64,000 nucleotides of DNA, from the sequence record PZ452596.1. One strand, 5' to 3'. The position numbers and the translations under genes are program-made. Positions 13,862 through 64,000 of the stretch are shown here, in pieces. Below the pieces are notes generated by a model. It searched no databases. It worked only from the letters and a program-made list of their open reading frames with translations, and was not told the origin of the DNA. How positions within the stretch are numbered: position 1 is the stretch's first letter; each line of letters opens with the position of its first letter. The stretch is from a phage.

Positions 13862-14216
13862 TGATTTCGTCTACATTGTTTTCGTCAACAATGCAGTGAA
13901 TTTTTGTTACGCCAGAAACCTTGTCTTCGATTTCATCTTCTTCAGAAGTCGGTTCTTTATATTCGCGGAAACAATAAAACTCTTCTTCACGAAGTTCAAA
14001 ATAATCATCATCCATACCATCATCATTATAGATTTCACCATTAGCACAAATGATTTCGGTTACATAATCAAAGCCATCTAAACTTAATATTGATTTAACT
14101 TCAAACCAACCACCATTTTCTTGAATGATGCCGACCATACTAGCATTTGATGAACTAATATCAATGAAAGATTTAATATGACGTGGATTTAACTCGTATT
14201 TTTTGCCGATTTCCAT
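13830..14216 (-). CDS. hypothetical acidic protein (frd-32 cluster)
   Basis: start taken at second ATG (14216), which has SD GAGGAAAA; 128 aa. Confidence 0.5.
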   Translation of the reverse strand: MEIGKKYELNPRHIKSFIDISSSNASMVGIIQENGGWFEVKSILSLDGFDYVTEIICANGEIYNDDGMDDDYFELREEEFYCFREYKEPTSEEDEIEDKVSGVTKIHCIVDENNVDEIIELLRKTFKA

Positions 14217-14238
14217 TTTGATTTTCCTCATTTTAATA

Positions 14239-14272
14239 GGGGCTTGATAGCCCCTTGATAACCCCTTGATAA
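14239..14272. repeat. short tandem repeat with hairpin potential
   Basis: GGGG CTTGATAG CCCC TTGATAA CCCC TTGATAA: about 2.5 copies of an 11-nt unit, intergenic. Confidence 0.6.
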
Positions 14273-14503
14273 TTATTGTTCAATCAGTCCCATGTAAAAT
14301 TCTGCGTCTTCAGAATCCATGCCATCACAATATTCATTAGCCATAAAGCGGGTGAGGTCTTCAAGAGGACCTTCAATGACAATAGAAAAATTGCAATAAT
14401 TGGGATCATCGTGAATACTTGTGATACTAAGTTCAGGATAACGATTACGAATAATTTCTTCGATATATTCAAAATCAACGATGTCAATATCAACTTTAGC
14501 CAT
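14273..14503 (-). CDS. hypothetical acidic protein (frd-32 cluster)
   Basis: start at MAKVDIDIV with SD AAAGAGGAAAA; 76 aa. Confidence 0.5.
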
Positions 14504-14529
14504 ATTATTTTCCTCTTTAATCATCAGCA

Positions 14530-14590
14530 GTATTGCCGATAGTTGTATAGTACCATGGAAGAACAGGGATGTAAACAGTTTTGCGAAAAA
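14530..14590 (-). promoter_or_regulatory. T4-type early promoter (repeat family copy)
   Basis: minus strand GTTTACA -spacer- GGTACTATACAACTATC...; shares ~45 bp with copies at 31205, 34836, 62068. Confidence 0.5.
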
Positions 14591-14607
14591 ATTTTTGAAA
14601 TAAAAAA

Positions 14608-14626
14608 GGGGACCCTAGAGGTCCCC
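14608..14626 (-). terminator. rho-independent terminator after gene 32
   Basis: GGGGACC-CTAGA-GGTCCCC hairpin followed on minus strand by TTTTTTATTT. Confidence 0.8.
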
Positions 14627-14649
14627 CAATTAATTAGTAATATAATCTA

Positions 14650-15558
14650 TTAAAGGTCATTCAAAAGGTCATCCAGGTCCGTGTCATCAGCACTAGATGA
14701 ACTGCCAGAGCTTGAGCTCATAAAATCATCTTCAGTTTTTGTATTGAAGTCATCAACATTGAATGCATCCAAATCATCAGCAACTTTATCAGCTTTCTTA
14801 GCAGCAGTTGCAGCGGCACCGCCCATCACAGCAGTTCCCATAACTTGACCGAATTTAGTATTCAGTTCTTCAAACGATTTGAATTTATCTTTAGAAGTCA
14901 TTTCAGAAAGGTCAACCATTTGTTCGAACAGTTCTTTCTGGAAAGATTCATCATCAATGTTTGGAATCGCAGATTGATTCAGGAATTTAGATTCATCGTA
15001 GTTACTAAATCCAGAAACTTGTTTAACTTTCAGTACAAAGTTAGCACCTTCCCACGGACAAGTTACATCAACCGGAGTTTCACCCATTTCGACATCAACT
15101 GCAATCATCGCGTTGATTTTATCCCAGATTTTCTTACCGAAACGGTATTTAAATACTTTACCTTCGTTTTCTGGAGCAGCTGGGTCTTTTACTACAAGAA
15201 TGTTAGCCCAGTAAGAAGTTTTGCGTTTAATAAGACTGTACTCTTTATTGTCAGTGTTGTATAGATCATTTTTACTAATGTACTGACATACTGGACAAGA
15301 ATCGTAATCACCGTGGGTAGATGAGCAATTTTCGATATACCATTTACCGTTTTTCTTGAAACCGTGATTTACAAGAATTGCGAATGGTGCTTGTTCATCA
15401 TTTTTAGACGGAAGAAAACGAATTACTGCTTGACCGTTACCCGCATTATCGAGTTTCAGTTTCCACTCGCCTTTATCTTCAGAAGAAAAACCACCTTTAT
15501 TTCCAGCCAGTTTAGCCATTTGTGCAGCGAGTTCAGCAGTAGATTTACGTTTAAACAT
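14650..15558 (-). CDS. 32: single-stranded DNA-binding protein gp32
   Basis: 302 aa, acidic Ser/Asp-rich C-terminal tail; matches T4 gp32. Confidence 0.95.
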
Positions 15559-15640
15559 TTTTATTTCCTTTTTAATTTAATTAACAGTTGGTGCTATGAC
15601 GATGTATGACCTCATAGCTGGTCAGTGAGATAATTATAAT
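15559..15640 (-). promoter_or_regulatory. gene 32 leader / autoregulatory translational operator region
   Basis: AU-rich unstructured leader UUAAAUUAAAAAGGAAAUAAAA before AUG; operator role known from T4. Confidence 0.5.
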
Positions 15641-15641
15641 C

Positions 15642-15649
15642 TATTTATA
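15642..15649 (-). promoter_or_regulatory. late promoter core TATAAATA upstream of gene 32
   Basis: exact TATAAATA on minus strand. Confidence 0.4.
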
Positions 15650-15657
15650 ATAAGCAA

Positions 15658-16311
15658 TTAATACTTGCAGGATTTCACAGTTTCAATGAAAACACTTTTA
15701 GCTTTCTGTGAATCAATATTTAAAATTTTTCTATAAGCTTTTAACTTTATAGAAAAATTATTCCAAACTAAATTATCAGTCTGTTCATCATGTTTATCAA
15801 TTATATTTAAAAACGAATCAAGTAAGATAAACGTCTCAAACGAAATTATATTCGATTGAAGCAGTTTAAAAATATAACTTGACTGAACTTTTGGATTATA
15901 TTCAAAGATTTCTTTAAAAGCAGAAACTTCAACTTTCTTACTAAAATAATAAATGTTGCGAATATCTTCTTCAAACTTAAATTTAATTTGCTTTAAGCGT
16001 CCGATATATTCACGATAAAACACAAGTGCATCAGCGTCAGAGATGTCACCAATCCAAGCATCTTGGTTAGCAACAAGATTGCTTATAAAGATTAAAGCAA
16101 GTTCCTTTAATTTATATTTTTCTGATAACTTCTGGAAAAAATACTTATCCCTTCGCTTTTGATAAGCGGCATCAGACACCCGCATGCACCAATTATACTT
16201 AATTACATCATACTTTCCATTCATATGCTGTTTTATCATTAAGTATAATTTATAAACTGATTTACCATCAATGTATCTTTCACCACCAGCAGGCATGCGG
16301 AGTTTAATCAT
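15658..16311 (-). CDS. 59: helicase loader gp59
   Basis: 217 aa, same length and position as T4 gp59. Confidence 0.9.
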   Translation of the reverse strand: MIKLRMPAGGERYIDGKSVYKLYLMIKQHMNGKYDVIKYNWCMRVSDAAYQKRRDKYFFQKLSEKYKLKELALIFISNLVANQDAWIGDISDADALVFYREYIGRLKQIKFKFEEDIRNIYYFSKKVEVSAFKEIFEYNPKVQSSYIFKLLQSNIISFETFILLDSFLNIIDKHDEQTDNLVWNNFSIKLKAYRKILNIDSQKAKSVFIETVKSCKY

Positions 16312-16646
16312 AGCAGAAAATCTAATGTATTAGTTTTTTCACAACGAACAACAGAAGGACGTAAAAGATTTTCGTCAATGGCTTCTGACTGAATTTTTTC
16401 AATTATACCCGAAGGAATAAATTTAGCAAATTGAGTTTCAGGAATAGAATTTTCTTCTAAGAATGCTGTTGTAGCTTCAAGATAACTCATTCCAAACTCT
16501 TCTACCATTTTTTCAATAATAAATCCATTTTCTTGACGATCAAGAAGCTTTGCGATTTCATCTTTTTCCTTTTTAAGGGAAAGTTCTTTTTCTGAAAGCC
16601 CGGCCTCATCGACCGGGCGAATATCATTTAGAGAAAACTGTGTCAT
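16308..16646 (-). CDS. 33: late transcription co-activator gp33
   Basis: 112 aa from MTQFSLNDIRP...; position 59-33-dsbA. Confidence 0.85.
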   Translation of the reverse strand: MTQFSLNDIRPVDEAGLSEKELSLKKEKDEIAKLLDRQENGFIIEKMVEEFGMSYLEATTAFLEENSIPETQFAKFIPSGIIEKIQSEAIDENLLRPSVVRCEKTNTLDFLL

Positions 16647-16893
16647 AAAGTTCAACTACCTCTTCAGTTTCAGCTTCAAACACATCACGGTTATCTTTAT
16701 GATACAAAGCTAATAGACGATTAAACATCTTACCATCAACGCCAAGTTCATCTTTGGCACGAATTCGAATGTCTTTAATCAATTCATTATAACCGGAAAT
16801 TTTCAGTTTATGATCAGATGCTTCTTTAATAAATTTAGCCAAGTCTTCGCCATGGATAGCTTCATCAAATTCAACCATTTCTTTTTTAGCCAT
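16624..16893 (-). CDS. dsbA: dsDNA-binding protein DsbA
   Basis: 89 aa, position between rnh and 33. Confidence 0.85.
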   Translation of the reverse strand: MAKKEMVEFDEAIHGEDLAKFIKEASDHKLKISGYNELIKDIRIRAKDELGVDGKMFNRLLALYHKDNRDVFEAETEEVVELYDTVFSK

Positions 16894-16901
16894 TATTCAC
16901 C

Positions 16902-17819
16902 TCAAAATTCATTAATGCTATTAGTTAATTTAGAAAGACCCGCTTTTACAAAATATGAATAAATTTTGCCACGCGGTGGTAATTTATATGAATTATAGTA
17001 ATTCACAATGTTTGAAGCAATATTATCAGGAATATAATCAAAATCAATTAGAACTAAATTTTCTTTATAACGATTATATTCAGATTCTGTGAGAAGCACC
17101 TTAGCTTGCTCACGGTCATTAGCAATAGCTTCAACGATTGAAGTTTTCATTGAAGGAGTTCGTTCACCTTCAACTTTGGTAAACCAAAAGTCAGATCGTA
17201 CTTTAACTGAAGCAACGTTATCCTTTTTGTCGCCTTTAAGGATTTTAGTCATACAGTCAATTTCAGCAGAACCGCTTTTAATTTTAACCCATTTCTTATG
17301 CATCGGTGACCATTGCTTAACATTTGGGTATTTGTGAAGTTGAGTAAAGTCACCATCCGATGAAATGATTAAAATCTTGTGTCCTTCTAAAGAGAACTTT
17401 TTAACAAGAACAGCAATGTGGTCATCTGCTTCATACTTATCAATATCCATAACAATGTATGGCATATAAGCTTTTAATTCATCTATAACTTTGTGGCTGG
17501 ATTCAAAATAACCTTCCCAGTCCCAAGTCGATTCTTCTCGTGCTTTTCCACGGTTTTTCTTGTAATAATACGCGAAATCACGACGCCAGTATCCAGATTT
17601 CGCGTTATCAATACACAGTACAATTTTAGTGTATCCAAGCGTTTTTGCTTTTTTGACATTAAACTTAATTGAGTTCAATATCAAATGACGAACCATTGAT
17701 AAATTAATTTTTTCTTTATCTGGGAAGTTTACCAGAGCAGTTGAAAGCGCAATTTGACTAAAGTCAATAAAGCAAATTCCTTCTTTGTAATCTTCATCCA
17801 GCATCATTTCTAAATCCAT
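16902..17819 (-). CDS. rnh: RNase H (5'-3' exonuclease, FEN family)
   Basis: 305 aa from MDLEMMLDEDYKEG...; matches T4 Rnh. Confidence 0.9.
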   Translation of the reverse strand: MDLEMMLDEDYKEGICFIDFSQIALSTALVNFPDKEKINLSMVRHLILNSIKFNVKKAKTLGYTKIVLCIDNAKSGYWRRDFAYYYKKNRGKAREESTWDWEGYFESSHKVIDELKAYMPYIVMDIDKYEADDHIAVLVKKFSLEGHKILIISSDGDFTQLHKYPNVKQWSPMHKKWVKIKSGSAEIDCMTKILKGDKKDNVASVKVRSDFWFTKVEGERTPSMKTSIVEAIANDREQAKVLLTESEYNRYKENLVLIDFDYIPDNIASNIVNYYNSYKLPPRGKIYSYFVKAGLSKLTNSINEF

Positions 17820-17881
17820 ATGAACCTCGTTCAATTAGTGAGATTTCTATTATATACCATCCAAATCTTAAAGTAAACAAG

Positions 17882-17889
17882 TATAAATA
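17882..17889 (+). promoter_or_regulatory. late promoter core (gene 34)
   Basis: exact TATAAATA about 35 nt upstream of gene 34 ATG. Confidence 0.7.
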
Positions 17890-17923
17890 CTTATTATTGA
17901 AAACACAATAGGAGCCCGGGAGA

Positions 17924-20900
17924 ATGGCCGAGATTAAAAGAAAGTTCAGAGCAGAAGATGGTCTGGACGCAGGTGGCGATAAAATAATCAACGTAGCTTT
18001 AGCTGATCGTGCCGTAGGAACTGACGGTGTTAACGTTGATTACTTAATTCAAGAAAACACAGTTCAACAATACGATCCAACTCGTGGATATTTAAAAGAT
18101 TTTGTAATCATTTATGATAACCGCTTTTGGGCTGCTATAAATGATATTCCAAAACCAGCAGGAGCTTTTAATAGCGTACGCTGGAGAGCGTTACGTACTG
18201 ATGCAAACTGGACAACTGTTTCATCAGGACCTTATCAATTAAAATCGGGTGAATCAATTTCAGTTGATACTGCAGCTGGTAATGACATTACATTTACTTT
18301 ACCATCTACCCCAATTGACGGTGATACTATCGTTCTCCAAGATATTGGAGGAAAACCTGGAGTTAATCAAGTTTTAATTACAGCTCCGGTACAAAGCATT
18401 GTAAATTTTAGAGGTCAGCAAGTACGTTCAGTACTAATGACTCATCCAAAATCACAGATAGTTTTAATTTTTAGTAATCGTCTGTGGCAAATGTATGTCG
18501 CTGATTATAGTAGAGAAGCTGTAGTTGTAACGCCTGCGAGTCTCTATCAGGCGCAATCAAACGATTTTATCGTACGTAGATTTACTTCTGCTTCAGCAAT
18601 TAATATTAAACTTCCAAGATTTGCCAATCATGGCGATATTATTAATTTCGTTGATTTGGATAAATTAAATCCTCTTTATCACACAATTGTTACTACATAT
18701 GATGAAACAACTTCAGTACAAGAAGTTGGAACTCATTCCATTGAAGGTCGTACATCGATTGACGGTTTCTTGATGTTTGATGATAATGAGAAATTGTGGA
18801 GATTGTTTGATGGGGATAGTAAAGCACGTTTACGCATTATAACAACTAATTCTAATATTCGTCCAAATGAAGAAGTCATGGTATTTGGCGCGAATAATGG
18901 AACAACCCAAACAATTGAACTTCAGCTTCCGACTGATATTTCTGTTGGTGATACTGTCAAAATTTCCATGAATTACATGAGAAAAGGACAAACGGTTAAA
19001 ATCAAAGCTGCAGGTGAAGATAAAATTGCTTCTTCAGTTCAATTGCTGCAATTCCCAAAACGCTCAGAATATCCACCTGAAGCTGAGTGGGTTACAGTTC
19101 AAGAATTAGTTTTTAACGGTGAAACTAATTATGTTCCAGTTTTGGAGCTTGCTTATATTGAAGATTCTGATGGAAAATATTGGGTTGTACAGCAAAACGT
19201 TCCAACTGTAGAAAGAGTAGATTCTTTAAATGATTCTACTAGAGCAAGATTAGGGGTAATTGCTTTAGCTACACAAGCTCAAGCTAATGCTGATTTAGAA
19301 AATTCTCCACAAAAAGAATTGGCAATTACTCCAGAAACGTTAGCTAATCGTACTGCTACAGAAACTCGTAGAGGTATTGCAAGAATAGCAACTACTGCTC
19401 AAGTTAACCAGGATACTACATTCTCTTTTGCTGATGATATTATCATCACTCCTAAAAAGCTGAATGAAAGAACAGCTACTGAAACTCGCAGAGGTGTTGC
19501 TGAAATTGCTACACAGCAAGAAACTAATACAGGAACCGATGATACTACAATCATCACTCCTAAAAAGCTTCAAGCTCGACAAGGTTCTGAATCATTATCT
19601 GGTATTGTAACTTTTGTATCTACTGCAGGTGCTACTCCAGCTTCTAGCCGTGAATTAAATGGTACGAATGTTTATAATAAAAACACTAATAATTTAGTTG
19701 TTTCACCTAAAGCTTTGGATCAGTATAAAGCTACTCCAACACAGCAAGGTGCAGTAATTTTAGCAGTTGAAAGTGAAGTAATTGCTGGACAAAGTCAGGA
19801 AGGATGGGCAAATGCGGTTGTAACACCAGAAACGTTACATAAAAAGACATCAACTGATGGAAGAATTGGTTTAATTGAAATTGCTACGCAAAGTGAAGTT
19901 AACACAGGAACTGATTATACTCGTGCAGTCACTCCTAAAACTTTAAATGACCGTAGAGCAACTGAAAGTTTAAGTGGTATAGCTGAAATTGCTACGCAAG
20001 TTGAATTCGACGCAGGCGTCGACGATACTCGTATCTCTACACCATTAAAAATTAAAACCAGATTTAATAGTACTGATCGTACTTCTGTTGTTGCTCTATC
20101 TGGATTAGTTGAATCAGGAACTCTCTGGGACCATTATACCCTCAATATTCTTGAAGCAAATGAGACACAACGTGGTACACTTCGTGTAGCTACACAAGTT
20201 GAAGCTGCTGCAGGAACATTAGATAATGTTTTAATAACTCCTAAAAAGCTTTTAGGTACTAAATCTACTGAAGCGCAAGAAGGTGTTATTAAAGTTGCAA
20301 CTCAGTCTGAAACTGTGACTGGAACATCAGCAAATACTGCTGTATCTCCAAAAAATTTAAAATGGATCGTGCAGAGCGAACCTACTTGGGCAGCAACTAC
20401 TGCAGTAAGAGGCTTTGTTAAAACTTCATCTGGTTCAATTACATTCGTTGGTAATGATACGGTAGGTTCAACACAGCCATTAGAATCATATGAGAAAAAT
20501 AGCTATGCAGTATCACCATATGAATTAAACCGTGTATTAGCAAATTATCTGCCGTTAAAAGCAAAAGCTGTAGATAGTAATTTATTGGATGGTCTAGATT
20601 CATCTCAGTTCATTCGTAGGGATATTGCGCAGACGGTTAATGGTTCACTAACCTTAACCCAACAAACGAATCTGAGTGCCCCTCTTGTATCATCTAGTAC
20701 TGCTACGTTTGGTGGTTCAGTTACGGCAAATAGTGTACTAACTATTTCTAATACTGGAACAGAAACTCATCTGATTTTTGAGAAAGGACCTCAAACTGGA
20801 ACTAACCAAGCACAGACGGTGACTATTAGAGTGTGGGGTAATCAATTTAGTGGGGAATCAGATACAACACGTTCTACTGTATTTGAAGTTGGTGATGAAA

Positions 20901-39165: not shown

Positions 39166-40980
39166 GCTCATCCATTCTTTACGAAGGTCAGCATTATCTC
39201 CCATGAGCATTTCAAAAAGCTCTTTCCAGTTCTCAGGAAGTTTAACAACATCATATACTGGATTTTGAATCATCTCACGATATTCAGATTTTTCCAAAGA
39301 GCCAAGTCCCTTAATATAACGGATACTATGTTTAGGTAGAGCATCTTTAGCACTCTCATATTCAGCGACTGTATAAAACCATTCTTGTTTTTTACCGACC
39401 TGAGCGATGATTACAGGAGTTTTGACAAAGCGAATTCGTCCTTGCTCAAACAATTCTGGCCAATTACTAAAAAATCCGAGCAGAGAAGGATAAATGCTTC
39501 CTAAACCATCATGGTCAGCATCAGTCATAATAGCAATATTATGATAATTCAAGTTTTCAGCTTTTTCACCTAGAACTAAACCCGTGATTGCGCAAATATC
39601 AAACAGTTCTTTGTTTTTAAGCATATCAGCATATGACATACCCCAACTGTTGAGAACTTTACCACGCAATGGATAACCACCATGAAGTTCTTTATCACGA
39701 ACATCAATAAGATATCCGATAGCAGAATCACCCTCAGTCAAGAAAAGAGTAGTGTCAGCATCTTTACCACAAAGATTCGCTTTAATATGTTTATGAACCT
39801 TAGCTTTAGAAGCCTTTTTAGCTGCTTTAGTTTCTGCTGCTTTTTCTGCTGCCAATTTACGAGCTAATGCTGCTTCAATAATTGGCATCAAAATTGCTTC
39901 ATTATTTAGAATAGCGCGTGAAATCTTTTTAGCATCAAGTTGAATATGACTACGGATTTCACCAAATGGAGAAGTCAAACGCTCTTTAGTTTGAGAATCA
40001 AATCGCATGTTTTTCATATCACGAACAAACATAACGATAGTCAAACATTCTTTGACACGTGCTTTAGTTACATCAATTTTGAACTTACGTTTGATTTGTG
40101 GAATAAGGTCTTCACAAATATCATCCATAACACAGTCAATGTGATGGCCACCATTCTTAGTGTGAATGTTATTCACATAAGTTAATTGACGAAATCCATC
40201 CGGTGAACGACCAACCGCAATAGAACAATTTTCTTGTTCTTGAACAATAGCATGTTCATCATACTGTCGTGCATATTTCTTAAAATTGCCCTGAACCTTT
40301 TTACCATTAAAGGTAAATTGAATATCAGGATAAACAACAGCAAGTGTCTGGAGACGATCCAGTGTAATGTCAAGATAAACTTGGGACAGCTCATTAGTTT
40401 CAAATGACATAAAATCAGGAATGAAAGTAACACGAGTTCCTTTCCATTTTCCAGGAATATCTTCCCATGATTTATTTTCCATGCCATTTGAACAACGAAC
40501 TACAATATTATTTTGACCATCACCAGTTTCACCGACAAACATCACAGAAAAAATGTTTGTCAAACTAGAACCAACACCATTCATACCACCGGTGACGCGT
40601 TCTTTATCATCACCGAAGTTACCACCTGCTTTTGGAATAGTCCACGCAGCAACAGGACCAGGAATTTCTTCACCTGTAGGTGTTTTAACCATCGCCTGTG
40701 GAATACCGCGACCGTTATCTTCAACTGTTACCTGATTATTTTTAATAGTAACATTAATTTTATTTGCGAATTTAAACTTAGTACGAATACCTTCATCTAC
40801 TGAGTTATCAATAATTTCATCAATAAGCTTAACAAGACCAGGTACATACTGAACACTTTCCCATTTACCAAACAGAAAGCGCTCATGCATTTCATTAGCA
40901 GAAGAGCCAATATACATGCCGCTACGCTTTTTGATATGTTCAATATCGCTCAGAATTTTAATTTCATTCTTAATCATCAC
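39160..40980 (-). CDS. 39: DNA topoisomerase II large (ATPase) subunit, unsplit gene 39
   Basis: 606-aa GyrB-like ORF in one frame; in T4 this protein is split into genes 39 and 60. Confidence 0.9.
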   Translation of the reverse strand: MMIKNEIKILSDIEHIKKRSGMYIGSSANEMHERFLFGKWESVQYVPGLVKLIDEIIDNSVDEGIRTKFKFANKINVTIKNNQVTVEDNGRGIPQAMVKTPTGEEIPGPVAAWTIPKAGGNFGDDKERVTGGMNGVGSSLTNIFSVMFVGETGDGQNNIVVRCSNGMENKSWEDIPGKWKGTRVTFIPDFMSFETNELSQVYLDITLDRLQTLAVVYPDIQFTFNGKKVQGNFKKYARQYDEHAIVQEQENCSIAVGRSPDGFRQLTYVNNIHTKNGGHHIDCVMDDICEDLIPQIKRKFKIDVTKARVKECLTIVMFVRDMKNMRFDSQTKERLTSPFGEIRSHIQLDAKKISRAILNNEAILMPIIEAALARKLAAEKAAETKAAKKASKAKVHKHIKANLCGKDADTTLFLTEGDSAIGYLIDVRDKELHGGYPLRGKVLNSWGMSYADMLKNKELFDICAITGLVLGEKAENLNYHNIAIMTDADHDGLGSIYPSLLGFFSNWPELFEQGRIRFVKTPVIIAQVGKKQEWFYTVAEYESAKDALPKHSIRYIKGLGSLEKSEYREMIQNPVYDVVKLPENWKELFEMLMGDNADLRKEWMSQ

Positions 40981-52226: not shown

Positions 52227-52482
52227 AACCACCGACACCTGGTGTCGGTGTAACAGTCCAAAGACCTTCATTAGCAGTGATCCATTCAGTACGCTGATTT
52301 TCTTCATATACTGTAGAATATGCTGCTTTTTCAGAAGGGAATGTCTGATAATGAGCACCAGAAATTTTGTGAACATCAGAATAAAGAGGGAAAGCTACAG
52401 AAATTTCTTTACCCTGAATTGTACCACCATCAACTGCTTGGTCAAATGTTTTGATATTAACATAACCGCGAGTACTAGCCAT
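52225..52482 (-). CDS. soc: small outer capsid protein Soc
   Basis: 85 aa MASTRGYVNIKTFDQ...; late promoter TATAAATA upstream, terminator downstream. Confidence 0.88.
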   Translation of the reverse strand: MASTRGYVNIKTFDQAVDGGTIQGKEISVAFPLYSDVHKISGAHYQTFPSEKAAYSTVYEENQRTEWITANEGLWTVTPTPGVGG

Positions 52483-52512
52483 GTAATTCTCCTTTTATTT
52501 AAATTACATGAT

Positions 52513-52520
52513 TATTTATA
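52513..52520 (-). promoter_or_regulatory. late promoter core (soc)
   Basis: exact TATAAATA on minus strand about 30 nt upstream of soc ATG. Confidence 0.65.
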
Positions 52521-52550
52521 ATAAATTCTCGCGGCTTTTAAGACGAGCTG

Positions 52551-53069
52551 TTAATAACCTCGGTCTTGACGAGCAAAGTTTTCAGCATTTTTCAGATAAT
52601 AAAGTTTAAAGATTTCTTCTGCTGTAAGACCAAGACCTTGGAACATGTTCAGAACGAAATGGAGAATATCAATCATTTCAAATTTAATTTCCAATTGGTC
52701 TTGTGGAGACAAATCAGTAATCAAAGTTTCACGGCGTTCACCATGCTGCGACTTCCAAGGTTTCCATACAGCAGATGCATCTTTTTCACCATTGCTCATA
52801 CCACCAAGAGAAGTCAGAAGTTCGCGGAATTCATCATCAATATAATCTTTCTGATTGCGTAGCCAATCAACAACTTCACCTGCAGTAGCCAAATCATCAG
52901 GATGACGGTTATATTCAGGTTTATCTTTAGCTAAACGAACCTGTAGAGATTTCTGCATATCAAGCATAACCTGCAGCGGGTCTTTTTCGTCACCGAGAAT
53001 ATCCCAATATTCATTTTGAGCTTTATCAGCGCCTTCAATCAGTTGTGAGCATTCATTAAAGTAAGCCAT
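52551..53069 (-). CDS. 56: dCTP pyrophosphatase (dCTPase/dUTPase, MazG-like) gp56
   Basis: 172 aa from MAYFNECSQLIEGADKA...; track ORF start is a GTG over-extension. Confidence 0.88.
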   Translation of the reverse strand: MAYFNECSQLIEGADKAQNEYWDILGDEKDPLQVMLDMQKSLQVRLAKDKPEYNRHPDDLATAGEVVDWLRNQKDYIDDEFRELLTSLGGMSNGEKDASAVWKPWKSQHGERRETLITDLSPQDQLEIKFEMIDILHFVLNMFQGLGLTAEEIFKLYYLKNAENFARQDRGY

Positions 53070-53140
53070 TATTTTTCCTTTCAATTCGTGGGTTAGTAGA
53101 TCAATTATACAATAAATATATAAAGCAATAAGGAGGACAT

Positions 53141-53341
53141 ATGGTACAAAAATTAATGGCACTTGTTAATGCCATCAAAGGTAATAAAAAGCGTATAGCT
53201 TTTACTATTTCTGCTATGGTAGGAATTTTACTCTGGAACTTTATTTTATCACCAATTGCAATTGCGCATGGTGTTAATATTCCAGTAGTTACTCTTGATA
53301 CATTTGTAGATTTAGCATTTGCTTTAGTTGGGTTAATTTAA
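53141..53341 (+). CDS. putative small membrane protein, antisense to the early transcription unit
   Basis: 66-aa ORF with strong SD (TAAGGAGG, 6 nt spacer); two hydrophobic segments. Confidence 0.3.
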   Translation: MVQKLMALVNAIKGNKKRIAFTISAMVGILLWNFILSPIAIAHGVNIPVVTLDTFVDLAFALVGLI

Positions 53342-54366
53342 ATCTTAGCATATTTAGATAACCGCATTTTAGCCATTAACCCCTGGGCAATATTATTTTT
53401 CATATATTCCATAATTTGTTCAGGGGTTGCACCTTCCTTTCTAATCATATCATTAACATCTTTTGATTTCCAGGGAGATTTATCCCAAAACATAACCCTT
53501 TCTCCTGCATCAACTAATTTAGTCATTCGTTTAATAGTGTCAGGGTGACGAGGTTCATTATCTAAAACCCACACACGTCTATCTTTAAATGGAACAACTT
53601 CTAGGTCTAATTGACCACCTGTAATAGCTATACCATTTTCAATAAAAAGTGAATCTATAGGTCCTTCTAGAACATATACATCACCATCTTTAACTCGTTC
53701 GACTCCATAGATTTTTGTTGCTTCAGGATAAGCTTTGATAGTGATATATTTTTGGGGAGCATCTTTCTTTAATGCACGTCCTTGAAAAGACTCGGCTTTT
53801 CCATTAGCATTATAAATTGGAATAACAAGACGAGGCTCAGGTATTTCCTTTTTATATGTTCCCGGTGCTATGCTATTAACTAATTTAGGCCATTCAGTTG
53901 TAAACCAAAGATATTTCCATTTATCCTTTGGAATACAACGAGCTTTTACATATTTTATAATTGCATGGTCTTCCTCCAGTTTATCTAATCGAACACATGA
54001 CGGAAGAGATTTAATTATTTTCTTCTCAGGTTGTTTAGGAAGTTCTTTAGGTTTTTCTACTGGACGACTTTTACCTTTTTCTTTTCTTATTTCAAAGATA
54101 TACTCACGATATAAATCAGGTTCAAACTCCTTTAAATATATTCCGATTGGTGCATGATAGTTACAGTTATAACAATGAATATTTCCTTCATTATTATCAC
54201 CATAATACCATCCACGAGCTTTATTCTGGTCGGTTTTTGAATCTCCACAAACAGGGCATCTAAACCGCAATTTAAAAGTTGAACTATTATTTACTTGTGT
54301 GAATTTAGGTAAATGAGCCAATGCACGATACGCAAACTCATTATCAATCCAAGGTATTGATGACAT
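53338..54366 (-). CDS. 61: DNA primase gp61
   Basis: 342 aa, zinc-binding CPVCGDS...CYNCNYH; matches T4 gp61. Confidence 0.95.
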   Translation of the reverse strand: MSSIPWIDNEFAYRALAHLPKFTQVNNSSTFKLRFRCPVCGDSKTDQNKARGWYYGDNNEGNIHCYNCNYHAPIGIYLKEFEPDLYREYIFEIRKEKGKSRPVEKPKELPKQPEKKIIKSLPSCVRLDKLEEDHAIIKYVKARCIPKDKWKYLWFTTEWPKLVNSIAPGTYKKEIPEPRLVIPIYNANGKAESFQGRALKKDAPQKYITIKAYPEATKIYGVERVKDGDVYVLEGPIDSLFIENGIAITGGQLDLEVVPFKDRRVWVLDNEPRHPDTIKRMTKLVDAGERVMFWDKSPWKSKDVNDMIRKEGATPEQIMEYMKNNIAQGLMAKMRLSKYAKI

Positions 54367-54368
54367 TT

Positions 54369-54533
54369 TTACTCTTCTTTTTCTTTAGATTCCTCTTTTT
54401 TCTTTTTAGGAATCTGTTCAGGACCTTTATTTACTACAGCACCTGATGTTGTTCCAGTAGAGATATTTTCAGGATTACCACCTGAATCTCCAGCAACCAT
54501 ATCTTCTTTAATAAATTCTTTATATGTTTTCAT
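54369..54533 (-). CDS. hypothetical small protein
   Basis: 54-aa ORF MKTYKEFIKEDMVAG... found by hand; ATG lies inside the 49-bp repeat. Confidence 0.35.
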   Translation of the reverse strand: MKTYKEFIKEDMVAGDSGGNPENISTGTTSGAVVNKGPEQIPKKKKEESKEKEE

Positions 54534-54579
54534 ATTAACCTCTATTCATAAAAGCATTAAAAATTTGGTCATCAATAGA
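54531..54579. repeat. 49-bp direct repeat, copy 1
   Basis: catattaa[c]ctctattcataaaagcattaaaaatttggtcatcaataga; 48/49 identical to copy 2. Confidence 0.9.
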
Positions 54580-54891
54580 TGGAATAGCAACCTTTTCGGC
54601 ATCATTTAGCAAATCATTAATTTCATCAGATAGCATAACACATGTGCCTTTATTTCCTGTAATTGTTACTGCACAATTACGAACGTTTTCTTTATCAAAT
54701 TTTAGGTTAATATTTTCGTAGTGAAAATCCTTTAATGCCGAGTATATCTTTAAAATGAAATTGTCTTTTACTACAATAAACCCAACTTCACTATTAAAAC
54801 GTGGTTCATGGAAACTGTAATAAACCTTTTCATCTATGAAATCGTATGAAATTTTTTCCATTTTTAAATATGAAAATTCAGAACTATACAT
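54535..54891 (-). CDS. 61.x-family paralog (short)
   Basis: 118 aa; C-terminal SIDDQIFNAFMNR identical to next ORF; one copy of GFIVVKDN domain. Confidence 0.5.
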   Translation of the reverse strand: MYSSEFSYLKMEKISYDFIDEKVYYSFHEPRFNSEVGFIVVKDNFILKIYSALKDFHYENINLKFDKENVRNCAVTITGNKGTCVMLSDEINDLLNDAEKVAIPSIDDQIFNAFMNRG

Positions 54892-54937
54892 ATTAATCTC
54901 TATTCATAAAAGCATTAAAAATTTGGTCATCAATAGA
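54889..54937. repeat. 49-bp direct repeat, copy 2
   Basis: same sequence 358 bp away; spans C-terminal 13 codons, stop and next ATG of the paralog. Confidence 0.9.
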
Positions 54938-55534
54938 AATATTTACTTTAGACTGTTTTTCAGATGGCAATTCATATCCACATATTACAATTTTATGATC
55001 AATATCAAAATACACAGAAGCAATATGATTAATGATATTTTCAGTGAAGTCTAAATCAACATCAATATCTTTTTGACCACAGCCCAAAGGATAAATAATG
55101 CGAGTAATTCGATTATCTTTAACAAATATTCCACCGACATACTCTGTACTGCGTTTAAAGTCTACACGCCGACGAAATGAAAAATATTCAGGCTCTCTAT
55201 GAGCTCGGCTCATAGGACACAACGAGTAACTAGAATAAGAGATGTCAAATCCTACACCTTCAATATGAGCCAACGTGTCATGATTAAACCAATTATAATC
55301 GTACGCCAAATCCATTATATTGTAATATGTGAAAGGCACCGGATTAACATCATGTGTTGTACCTTTAAAATCTGCCCAGGCAACGATTTCGTTATCTTTA
55401 ACAATTACAAAAATTGTGCCAATAAGATATCCACGGTTATTTTCATCAGGCGTTATATTATAACATTGTGCATCAGGAAATTTACCGTATTTAAACGGTG
55501 GATTTTTGTGCATATAATAAATCATATTATTCAC
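54893..55534 (-). CDS. 61.x-family paralog (long; 61.2 position)
   Basis: 213 aa; two copies of the G.I.V.KDN domain; same C-terminal 13 aa as the short paralog. Confidence 0.5.
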   Translation of the reverse strand: MNNMIYYMHKNPPFKYGKFPDAQCYNITPDENNRGYLIGTIFVIVKDNEIVAWADFKGTTHDVNPVPFTYYNIMDLAYDYNWFNHDTLAHIEGVGFDISYSSYSLCPMSRAHREPEYFSFRRRVDFKRSTEYVGGIFVKDNRITRIIYPLGCGQKDIDVDLDFTENIINHIASVYFDIDHKIVICGYELPSEKQSKVNISIDDQIFNAFMNRD

Positions 55535-55820
55535 CTGTGATTTCGGTTACGATATTTTTGTTATTAAAGTTTTTATCGCAATACAGAACATAATTATACT
55601 GCATTACACCACCAGACTTAAGCTGTTTTTGTACTTCAGCTTTCATTTCAGGACGATCACGCTCAACGATATTCATAATATCTGCTTCAATCTGAGTTTC
55701 AACCTCAGTCTGATCTGCAGTCATAGACCATTCGCACAAATCTTTATCATAACCCGCCATAGCAGGCTGAGCAGCACAAGAAGCCAAAGCAAAAATTGCA
55801 GCAAAAATAAATTTTTTCAT
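55527..55820 (-). CDS. sp: Spackle periplasmic protein (lysozyme inhibitor / superinfection exclusion)
   Basis: 97 aa, signal peptide MKKFIFAAIFALASCAAQPAMA; matches T4 Sp. Confidence 0.85.
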   Translation of the reverse strand: MKKFIFAAIFALASCAAQPAMAGYDKDLCEWSMTADQTEVETQIEADIMNIVERDRPEMKAEVQKQLKSGGVMQYNYVLYCDKNFNNKNIVTEITGE

Positions 55821-62233: not shown

Positions 62234-64000
62234 TCAGCCAAACAGGAAGTCTAACGAAGCTTTTTCTTCATAGTCCATACCAGCCGATTCACACATGCCT
62301 GCAAGCGGTTTAACAAACGATTTTTGGAACAAAGTTGAGTAGTCAATCCAAGACAGTACGTCAGAACGAATTTCTTTTGGAAGTTCTGTGCCCGACGGCC
62401 AAGCAATGCACTTGTCACCAAATGGATTTCCTTCACGCAATGGAAGAACCATTACTTTATTTCCATCCAAAATTGGAGCTACACCCAGACCACTAACAGC
62501 TCGACGATAAGTTAGCACACCACGAATATGGAACGGGCATTTAAATCCTGGCCAACCTTTATCATCATATTTCGCTATATCGTTCGCAGTTTTTACTTCA
62601 GCAATAACTTTATAGTCAAGTTGACGATATTCTTTCTCGAAGTTCTTGTAATATTCTTGGACAGACTCTTCACCTTCCTGAAGAATACGACGAATACTTT
62701 CTTCAAGAGCTTCTTGCACTGCTTTAGGCGTTGAACTTTGCTGAGTTTCCATACCCATGATTTTTAGATGCGGTTCAGCAAATCGCTTATCTTCCATATC
62801 ATAAACGTTCAGAGCATAACGCTTTTTCGCTTTCCAAAATCCGCCAATGCCCTTTGAACCAAGTGGAGGGCAAGAAATAGCTTCACGGTCCATATGCATC
62901 AGATGCTCGCGGTTATTCATATAATCACATAACTCACGATATGCAACATCAATCATAGGTTCCATCTTTTTCTTACCAAACTGATTCATGAATTCAACTA
63001 AATCATTTTGTTCTTTAAAGCGGTCAAGACCTACTTTTTCAATTACTTTATCTACACAAACATATACCGAATCAGTATCACCTGCTGCAATGAAATCTTC
63101 GCCATTAGTTCCGCATACTTTATTCAGATATTCATTAATTTTACGAGCAATCCACTGAATACCAACTTGGCCGAAAATTGTGATAGCAGTAGCATTTCGC
63201 AAATCATAGTAACGAAAATGAATATTACCAAGAGCACCGTAAAGACTGTTAATAAGAATTTTACGGTTCAGCTGATTTGTGTTAGCAAGTGTAGCTGCTT
63301 TTTCACATTCTTCAATCAAACTATTGAGAACAGATTCGGTGTAATTCGATAGTTCATTTAAGAAATCATCACTGAACTTAACATATCGTTCAACTTCAGG
63401 TTTAGTTGAACAAGACCCTGCGCCTTTCATAATAATCTTTTTAATAGCTTCGGCATTCATTTCTTCAGCGAACATTTTCTTTTTCCAGTCTTTACGCTGG
63501 AAAAATACTTTAGCGATTTCCTTTGGAATGATACCTTCTTGATGCTTATCATACATCCATCCATTCGGAGAACAAGAATATTCATCACTCGGTTTAGGAG
63601 CTGTTCCTGCGATATATTCATGAATTGGATGAACTTTAAACTGCCCACGAATAGTCTCAGGACTAATGTTAACCTGACGAATAATGCTCGGATACAGAGA
63701 CGTCAAGTCAAAACTCATAATGTATCGACGAGCAATCGGTTTAGGTTCAAACACAAATGCACCCGGAAAACTTTGTTTAACGTGCGAACCTTGTTGAGGA
63801 ATAACCTTATGTTCACCTTTCAATGAGTTAAAAATAATAGCATCCCAAGTTTTAATAGGACTCATTACACCAGAAAAAGGCATTTTAGCATAATAAGACA
63901 TACTTAAAACTAGATCGATAAACCCGCGAATTTTATCAATTGCTTGAACTGATTCTACGTCAATGATGTTATAACTAATGTATCGTTGATGATTAGTCTC
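62234..64000 (-). CDS. 43: DNA polymerase gp43, C-terminal part (gene continues past window end)
   Basis: family B polymerase motifs (SLYPSI, YGDTDS); frame stays open from 63901 to window end. Confidence 0.95.
   Translation of the reverse strand, partial: ETNHQRYISYNIIDVESVQAIDKIRGFIDLVLSMSYYAKMPFSGVMSPIKTWDAIIFNSLKGEHKVIPQQGSHVKQSFPGAFVFEPKPIARRYIMSFDLTSLYPSIIRQVNISPETIRGQFKVHPIHEYIAGTAPKPSDEYSCSPNGWMYDKHQEGIIPKEIAKVFFQRKDWKKKMFAEEMNAEAIKKIIMKGAGSCSTKPEVERYVKFSDDFLNELSNYTESVLNSLIEECEKAATLANTNQLNRKILINSLYGALGNIHFRYYDLRNATAITIFGQVGIQWIARKINEYLNKVCGTNGEDFIAAGDTDSVYVCVDKVIEKVGLDRFKEQNDLVEFMNQFGKKKMEPMIDVAYRELCDYMNNREHLMHMDREAISCPPLGSKGIGGFWKAKKRYALNVYDMEDKRFAEPHLKIMGMETQQSSTPKAVQEALEESIRRILQEGEESVQEYYKNFEKEYRQLDYKVIAEVKTANDIAKYDDKGWPGFKCPFHIRGVLTYRRAVSGLGVAPILDGNKVMVLPLREGNPFGDKCIAWPSGTELPKEIRSDVLSWIDYSTLFQKSFVKPLAGMCESAGMDYEEKASLDFLFG

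Follow-up and report, generated by a model that had tools for sequence, protein, structure and literature searches.

The stretch of phage DNA analysed here (sequence record PZ452596.1, 64,000 nt; hereafter the window) contains a short interval between gene 56, encoding a dCTPase/dUTPase, and gene 61, encoding the DNA primase. Over bases 52400-54500, the window matches phage RB27 (KM607000/NC_025448) at 100% identity and many further Tequatrovirus genomes at 96-98%. The first and last 200 bases of the window map to RB27 positions 128467 and about 27287, respectively, and the window is therefore a circular permutation of the RB27 genome. Genes 56 and 61 both lie on the minus strand and are separated by 268 nt (53070..53337), in agreement with the ~270 bp given in an earlier reading made from the sequence alone (hereafter, the sequence-only reading). 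In this interval, facing the opposite way, is an open reading frame (ORF) of 66 codons with a strong Shine-Dalgarno sequence; the sequence-only reading had described this antisense frame, and its coordinates hold (Table 1). A spacer of 71 nt separates the ORF from gene 56, and at its other end the ORF stop codon interlocks with that of the primase gene, giving an overlap of 4 nt between the two coding sequences.

Table 1. Features of the 56-61 junction, in window coordinates.
Feature	Position	Strand	Details
Gene 56 (dCTPase/dUTPase)	52551..53069	-	start codon CAT at 53067-53069
MotA-type middle promoter of gene 56 (predicted)	53104..53128	-	read from sequence; MotA box TTGCTTTA (53128..53121), 11-nt spacer, -10 TATAAT (53109..53104)
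AATAAATA, late-promoter motif (T4 TATAAATA with A at -13)	53111..53118	+	22 nt before ATG; 7/8 match
Site of T4 extra ~0.9 kb (dam + upstream region), absent here	53128..53129		alignment, side-by-side sequences
Shine-Dalgarno TAAGGAGG	53129..53136	+	4 nt ahead of ORF ATG
66-aa CDS (RB27_032 'dam.1'; RB32ORF030w; PHROG 2024)	53141..53341	+	product MVQKLMALVNAIKGNKKRIAFTISAMVGILLWNFILSPIAIAHGVNIPVVTLDTFVDLAFALVGLI
Hairpin (11-bp stem, 4-nt loop, then U-run)	53153..53178	-	-12.4 kcal/mol, inside ORF 5' end
Gene 61 (DNA primase)	53338..54366	-	convergent with 66-aa ORF

The length of the ORF by itself is within chance expectation, and several spurious plus-strand ORFs of 95-113 aa lie antisense to real neighbouring genes in the window. 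The ORF stands above chance because the opposite strand is non-coding, because it is preceded by a Shine-Dalgarno sequence and a late-promoter motif, and because it is conserved across genera. It is 100% identical to the annotated RB27 coding sequence RB27_032 (which carries the note 'dam.1') and is annotated as RB32ORF030w in phages RB32, RB51 and RB14. An hmmscan search matched residues 2-66 to positions 1-65 of the 65-position profile of PHROG 2024 (E=1.5e-31). Using tblastn, the ORF was found in 693 phage records, 687 of them at a coverage of at least 80%, with 90-100% identity across Tequatrovirus. Orthologs in the same place and orientation, and of nearly the same length, are found in Mosigvirus (52-55% amino acid identity), Gaprivervirus (46-51%), Dhakavirus JS98, Klebsiella phage Biddle_MM4 and Jiaodavirus JIPh_Kp122. 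The position on the opposite strand between 56 (or dam) and 61 is common to RB27, T4, T6, JK42, phiC120, JS98, Biddle_MM4 and JIPh_Kp122, and the record of TH40, which has no annotation, contains the same flanking sequence around the ORF. The tail-to-tail overlap with gene 61 recurs in T4, T6, Mosigvirus and Biddle. The JS98 protein aligns to the family profile with a probability of 94.8% (hhalign, E=5e-8), and Foldseek adds a 63-aa protein of Enterobacter phage CIP9 to the family.

In Krischvirus (MIZ4) and Slopekvirus (VAC13), gene 61 is followed directly by gene 56, with 7-14 nt between them and no reversed ORF, and in Erwinia phage COW86c the 61-56 gap holds an unrelated 94-aa ORF on the same strand as its neighbours. 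This distribution marks the gene as an insertion that only some of the Tevenvirinae have. In searches for wider relatives, a word-indexed search of 5.8 billion proteins returned near-identical sequences only, a phmmer search of 1.8 billion representatives returned about five real relatives together with long repetitive proteins whose matches we regard as compositional, and a scan of IMG/VR yielded 10 loci, all belonging to the same clades. No paralogs of the ORF were found within RB27.

T4 itself carries the gene. Its dam-61 intergenic region (17625-17935) encodes an ORF that is 98.5% identical at the amino acid level and has the same overlap with gene 61; the difference is that its upstream neighbour in T4 is dam, which is missing from RB27. 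The T4 reference records (NC_000866.4 and AF158101.6) have no gene annotated at this site, while automated re-annotation of one T4 assembly does call it, and the homologous ORF in the 61-56 interval of the JS98 reference (NC_010105) is likewise uncalled. We found no paper mentioning 'dam.1' or RB32ORF030w, and nothing on the ORF in the literature on T4 ribosome profiling, small late membrane proteins or transcription start sites. That the ORF is annotated as a hypothetical protein in RB27 and relatives is already known; new here are the conserved late-promoter motif and, in RB27, its nesting inside the middle promoter of gene 56/oriA, as well as how far the family extends and the omission of the gene from the T4 and JS98 reference annotations.

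The sequence-only reading had offered two options for the ORF, namely a real small membrane protein with its own regulation or an artefact of AT-rich sequence. In pairwise Nei-Gojobori comparisons, dN/dS was about 0.1-0.3 within genera and 0.08-0.54 between them, with a value of 0.68 in one close Gaprivervirus pair that has few substitutions. Variable sites within Tequatrovirus fall 6, 2 and 13 times at codon positions one, two and three. This pattern indicates that the ORF is under purifying selection. A non-functional frame, either open by chance in AT-rich DNA or a by-product of constraint on the other strand (the 61-to-56 spacer RNA, the oriA region), would be in keeping with the omission from the T4 and JS98 references, the many spurious antisense ORFs of similar or greater length in the window, the minus-strand hairpin within the ORF and a T6 start codon that reads ATT. 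However, the frame stays open at the same length in clades with only 20-55% amino acid identity, its substitutions fall mostly at third codon positions with dN/dS below 1, and its ATG, Shine-Dalgarno sequence and late motif are maintained even where the DNA upstream is non-homologous. No minus-strand frame over the ORF is conserved (the longest is 25 aa), and the hairpin is not conserved outside Tequatrovirus. Conservation driven by the minus strand was rejected on the basis of the codon-position pattern and the missing frame, and we consider a non-functional frame extremely unlikely. Judged by these comparisons, the 66-codon frame is a real gene conserved across several Tevenvirinae genera. 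Of the two options, the real small membrane protein is thus supported by conservation, purifying selection and the late-promoter motif, while the artefact finds no support in a frame that is conserved across genera and under purifying selection.

The ATT found in T6 replaces the ATG of the small ORF (NC_054907, locus 2501-2701), and expression of the ORF may therefore be dispensable. The T6 coding sequence is annotated from Met6 as a 'putative head morphogenesis protein', a label without visible basis. Three IMG/VR contigs that encode the T6-type protein have ATG as the start.

The second feature of the junction is a gene that is absent. The sequence-only reading had placed dam between genes 56 and 61 on the T4 map and proposed that the present phage lacks it at this locus. 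The T4 records agree on the first point, giving the order 56, dam (16846-17625), a 310-nt gap and 61, and the 268-nt gap of RB27 is too small for a dam-sized gene. When the junction is aligned, T4 has dam there and T6 does not, and the additional ~0.9 kb of T4 is flanked on one side by the MotA box that belongs to the gene 56 promoter and on the other by the ribosome-binding site of the ORF. Krischvirus has a dam gene (46% identical) elsewhere on its map, and the search was therefore extended to all of RB27: tblastn with T4 Dam against the window and the remaining 101 kb gave no match at E<=1, and no methyltransferase is listed in the RB27 annotation over record positions 14187-19287 and 27000-129500. 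A dam gene elsewhere in RB27 was rejected, as the remaining genome gave no match.

The arrangement of gene 56, reversed ORF and gene 61 without dam is also found in T6, Mosigvirus (JK42, phiC120) and Gaprivervirus (TH40). At a threshold of at least 90% identity, T4-type Dam occurs in ~182 records of the phage collection versus ~503 for the small ORF, and of the close relatives with the ORF, just a third or so also carry a T4-type dam. Together, the dam-less relatives and the other map position in Krischvirus lead us to conclude that dam behaves as a variable accessory gene. Relatives more often lack dam at this site than have it, and the RB27 arrangement is no peculiarity; the 56-61 junction differs from one T-even phage to another, and RB27 has its dam-less form.

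We then consider how a gene reversed relative to its neighbours could be expressed. In T4, early and middle transcripts all run counterclockwise, and only late transcripts are found in either polarity (PMC2988020). The plus strand at this locus is the clockwise strand, and a plus-strand gene here would therefore have to be late. Immediately upstream of the ORF is a variant of the T4 late-promoter motif (Table 1), a -10 element that needs no -35 partner, with a predicted transcription start near 53124. Among 50 listed T4 late promoters, 32 have the perfect TATAAATA, and an A at -13, as seen here, is the commonest natural variant, present at nine of the 50 sites (PMC2988020).

The motif follows the gene through its family. 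In each clade, the last ~35 nt before the ATG contain a sequence of the form nATAAATA: AATAAATA in RB27, Mosigvirus and JS98 (22, 21 and 21 nt from the ATG, respectively), GATAAATA in T4 (21 nt), CATAAATA in Gaprivervirus (16 nt), a perfect TATAAATA in Biddle_MM4 (20 nt), and both CATAAATA and GATAAATA in Jiaodavirus (12 and 33 nt). It is mostly a 7/8, non-consensus match whose first base varies (A, G, C, T). T4 and RB27 share the motif despite having non-homologous DNA upstream of about -30, and the Shine-Dalgarno core AGGAG(G/A) is also kept across all clades. Across both strands of the window, ATAAATA occurs 14 times against an expectation of 37.4 +/- 6.3, a depletion of about 2.7-fold that fits selection against stray late promoters. 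The copies located at most 35 nt before ORF starts belong to the known late genes 34, 36, t and soc and to the 66-aa ORF, and another is situated 83 nt ahead of gene 32. The holin gene t (at about 27.8 kb of the window) has the same AATAAATA variant 18 nt before its ATG, together with AAGGAGG. In general layout the ORF resembles the late genes t and soc, which encode small products and have a strong Shine-Dalgarno sequence and, 18-30 nt ahead of the ATG, a motif of the TATAAATA type, although the ORF product resembles neither T nor Soc in sequence or fold. A scan for sigma-70 promoters on the plus strand nearby revealed no convincing candidate. We conclude that the ORF is probably expressed late from the predicted promoter; its transcription would be late only, by RNA polymerase modified by gp55, gp33 and gp45, starting at about 53124.

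This late motif shares its DNA with a promoter of the opposite strand. For T4, record X01416 annotates the mot-box and -10 of promoter P(M)16.53 ahead of gene 56 (then named '69'), and the predicted MotA-type middle promoter of RB27 aligns with both elements. In the T4 records (NC_000866, AF158101), the oriA primer RNA is the gene 56 transcript, and by alignment the predicted RB27 promoter is the homolog of the T4 oriA primer promoter. RB27 and T6 both have the plus-strand late motif within the middle-promoter spacer. The JS98 copy falls just beyond the mot-box, and by eye the Mosigvirus arrangement resembles that of JS98. In T4, by contrast, the late motif is 0.9 kb from the gene 56 middle promoter, beyond dam. 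A single stretch of 25 bp in RB27 would thus drive middle transcription leftwards and late transcription rightwards.

The other end of the ORF implies a further encounter between the two strands. The tail-to-tail overlap of the ORF with gene 61 leaves no room for a terminator, so that a late transcript must enter gene 61 in antisense, and early and middle transcripts running from 61 to 56 would in turn be antisense to the ORF. The minus-strand hairpin inside the 5' end of the ORF, which places it between gene 61 and the middle promoter of gene 56, is terminator-like and could attenuate read-through from 61 to 56, although this is uncertain. The T4 hairpin is weaker (-8.9 kcal/mol), and none is evident in Mosigvirus, Gaprivervirus or Dhakavirus; a conserved terminator was rejected, as the hairpin is confined to Tequatrovirus.

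Such a convergent layout could point to a role at the level of RNA, in which the late plus-strand RNA would act as an antisense RNA that shuts down the primase and 56 read-through mRNA, the peptide being secondary, or, by analogy with type I toxins, a hydrophobic peptide would be silenced early by the antisense early mRNA. The sense and antisense RNAs must overlap, given the 4-nt tail-to-tail overlap without terminator room, and the convergent layout is conserved. However, conservation at the protein level shows selection on the peptide itself, and Jiaodavirus keeps the gene with no overlap with 61, having a 17-nt gap instead. Furthermore, no dedicated antisense promoter or sRNA was seen: the antisense RNA here would be ordinary early or middle read-through from 61, with no separate sRNA promoter in our scan. 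We therefore regard a primarily RNA-level role as improbable.

The encoded product is predicted to be a membrane protein. The sequence-only reading had attributed two hydrophobic segments to it, and both stretches are present: in 15-residue Kyte-Doolittle windows, residues 19-43 reach 2.07 and residues 49-66, which include two Asp, reach 1.95. An AlphaFold2 model built on a 12-sequence alignment (pLDDT 82) has helices at residues 2-12, 16-42 and 52-63. The second segment is probably not a membrane span, since its helix in the model has only 12 residues and the segment contains the two Asp. Five Lys/Arg residues are found in residues 4-18 and none beyond the long helix, His43 being the sole basic residue after position 18. 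Residues W32, N33, P38, G44, P48 and G64 are invariant in an alignment of eight sequences, and inspection of the Jiaodavirus protein by eye shows that the WN, P, HG and P motifs are kept there.

On this model, the product would be a bitopic peptide of the inner membrane, its basic, amphipathic N-terminus facing the cytoplasm, with a single transmembrane helix at approximately residues 19-42, which would include the invariant Trp32-Asn33 and Pro38. About 24 acidic, hydrophobic residues at the C-terminus would lie outside the membrane. The cytoplasmic location of the N-terminus, and the periplasmic location of the last 24 residues, follow from the positive-inside rule. A polar Asn in the middle of the helix suggests association between helices, either with itself or with a partner.

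The same residues could be read as a secretory pre-peptide, which differs from the bitopic peptide only in the final form of the protein. Residues 1-42 would then be a long Sec signal peptide cut by signal peptidase I after Ala42, and the acidic, hydrophobic 24-residue peptide HGVNIPVVTLDTFVDLAFALVGLI would be released into the periplasm late in infection. The sequence has a basic n-region followed by a hydrophobic core, a helix-breaking Pro at -5, small residues at -3 and -1 and then a near-invariant (H/Q/N)-G; by inspection, the pattern P-x-[A/L]-x-[A/S/T] | [H/Q/N]-G is found in nine of nine clade representatives. As the -3/-1 rule is satisfied in all nine, a 24-residue C-terminal peptide might be released. 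T4 Spackle is a cleaved periplasmic protein, and the Spackle encoded in the window (55527..55820, minus strand) has what looks like a classical N-terminal signal peptide. On the other hand, a core of ~18-24 residues preceded by an 18-residue n-region exceeds the usual length in cleaved signal peptides and is what signal anchors typically have, AlphaFold gives one unbroken helix from 16 to 42, and small residues commonly end transmembrane helices anyway. We therefore favour the uncleaved, bitopic form and consider cleavage unlikely.

Given that the product is small, hydrophobic and probably expressed late, a holin or pinholin-like lysis protein also has to be weighed. Holins have at least one transmembrane domain, and residues 19-42 are hydrophobic and predicted to be helical; the homolog in phage OE5505 is named 'Holin' in UniRef and BFVD, and the layout of promoter and ribosome-binding site resembles that of gene t, described above. 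However, the name comes from a single UniProt entry, and nothing was seen to support it. The protein matches no Pfam or NCBIfam family, those of holins included, and only one membrane span is convincing. The charged, hydrophilic C-terminal tail of holins is missing, as the protein ends in ...DLAFALVGLI and its orthologs are alike; on this feature we rejected the 'Holin' label. Moreover, the phage already has the holin gene t (~27.8 kb) and a distant lysozyme gene e (RB27 62418-62912). A holin thus appears very unlikely.

Searches of Pfam, NCBIfam and PADLOC revealed no relatives of known function, and Foldseek against BFVD recovered same-family members only. Because no functional homolog was found, a role at the envelope has predicted topology and timing as its two supports, and the most speculative step of the proposed mechanism is that the product would act at the cell envelope late in infection. 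There its most plausible action would be to bind a different membrane protein, one from the machinery of lysis, lysis inhibition or superinfection. Small single-pass membrane regulators are known both from bacteria, as with AcrZ and MgtS of E. coli, and from phages, as with the T4 antiholin RI. The ORF product resembles these in its small size, in a single hydrophobic helix with a polar residue in its middle and in having no enzymatic domain, a likeness that suggests action by binding to a larger membrane protein. It should be noted that there is no homology between them and the ORF product, and the comparison is one of analogy only.

Taken together, the reading we favour, to which we assign a probability of roughly 80%, is that the dam-less RB27 junction carries a genuine small gene on the late strand, encoding a late-transcribed bitopic membrane peptide that would act at the envelope late in infection. 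We favour a small, late modulator acting at the envelope, with low confidence in any specific role. We speculate further that the gene may specify an unstudied late envelope factor of T-even phages, either the 66-residue bitopic protein or the released 24-residue periplasmic peptide, that would contact a partner membrane protein via its invariant Trp-Asn/Pro helix and in this way tune lysis timing, lysis inhibition or superinfection exclusion, with its synthesis gated by nesting in the oriA promoter and by convergent early transcription; in this full form the proposal is rather unlikely.

The finding is solid but modest. T4 is among the best-annotated viruses, yet the 310-bp gap near oriA that appears 'empty' in its reference holds a gene conserved in multiple genera. 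If the late membrane product is real, it would be a small addition to the envelope and lysis toolkit of the T-even phages, and the junction would be a compact case of middle and late promoters nested on opposite strands. The absence of dam, on the other hand, is ordinary.

The surroundings of the junction differ from T4 and T6 in other small respects. The spacing between soc and gene 56 (52483..52550) is only 68 nt, and in RB27 this interval has neither the segF homing endonuclease gene found at this place in T4 nor the two small ORFs of T6. Between 61.1 and 61.2 lies a 118-aa ORF without a T4 gene name (RB27_035, 54535..54891, minus strand); it is paralogous to the C-terminal half of 61.2 (54893..55534, minus strand), with 34% identity over 105 aa and a shared C-terminal SIDDQIFNAFMNR. 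A second reversed mini-gene is present in an early region: RB27 55.7, of 28 aa, located at 39417-39503 on the plus strand amid early genes of the minus strand.
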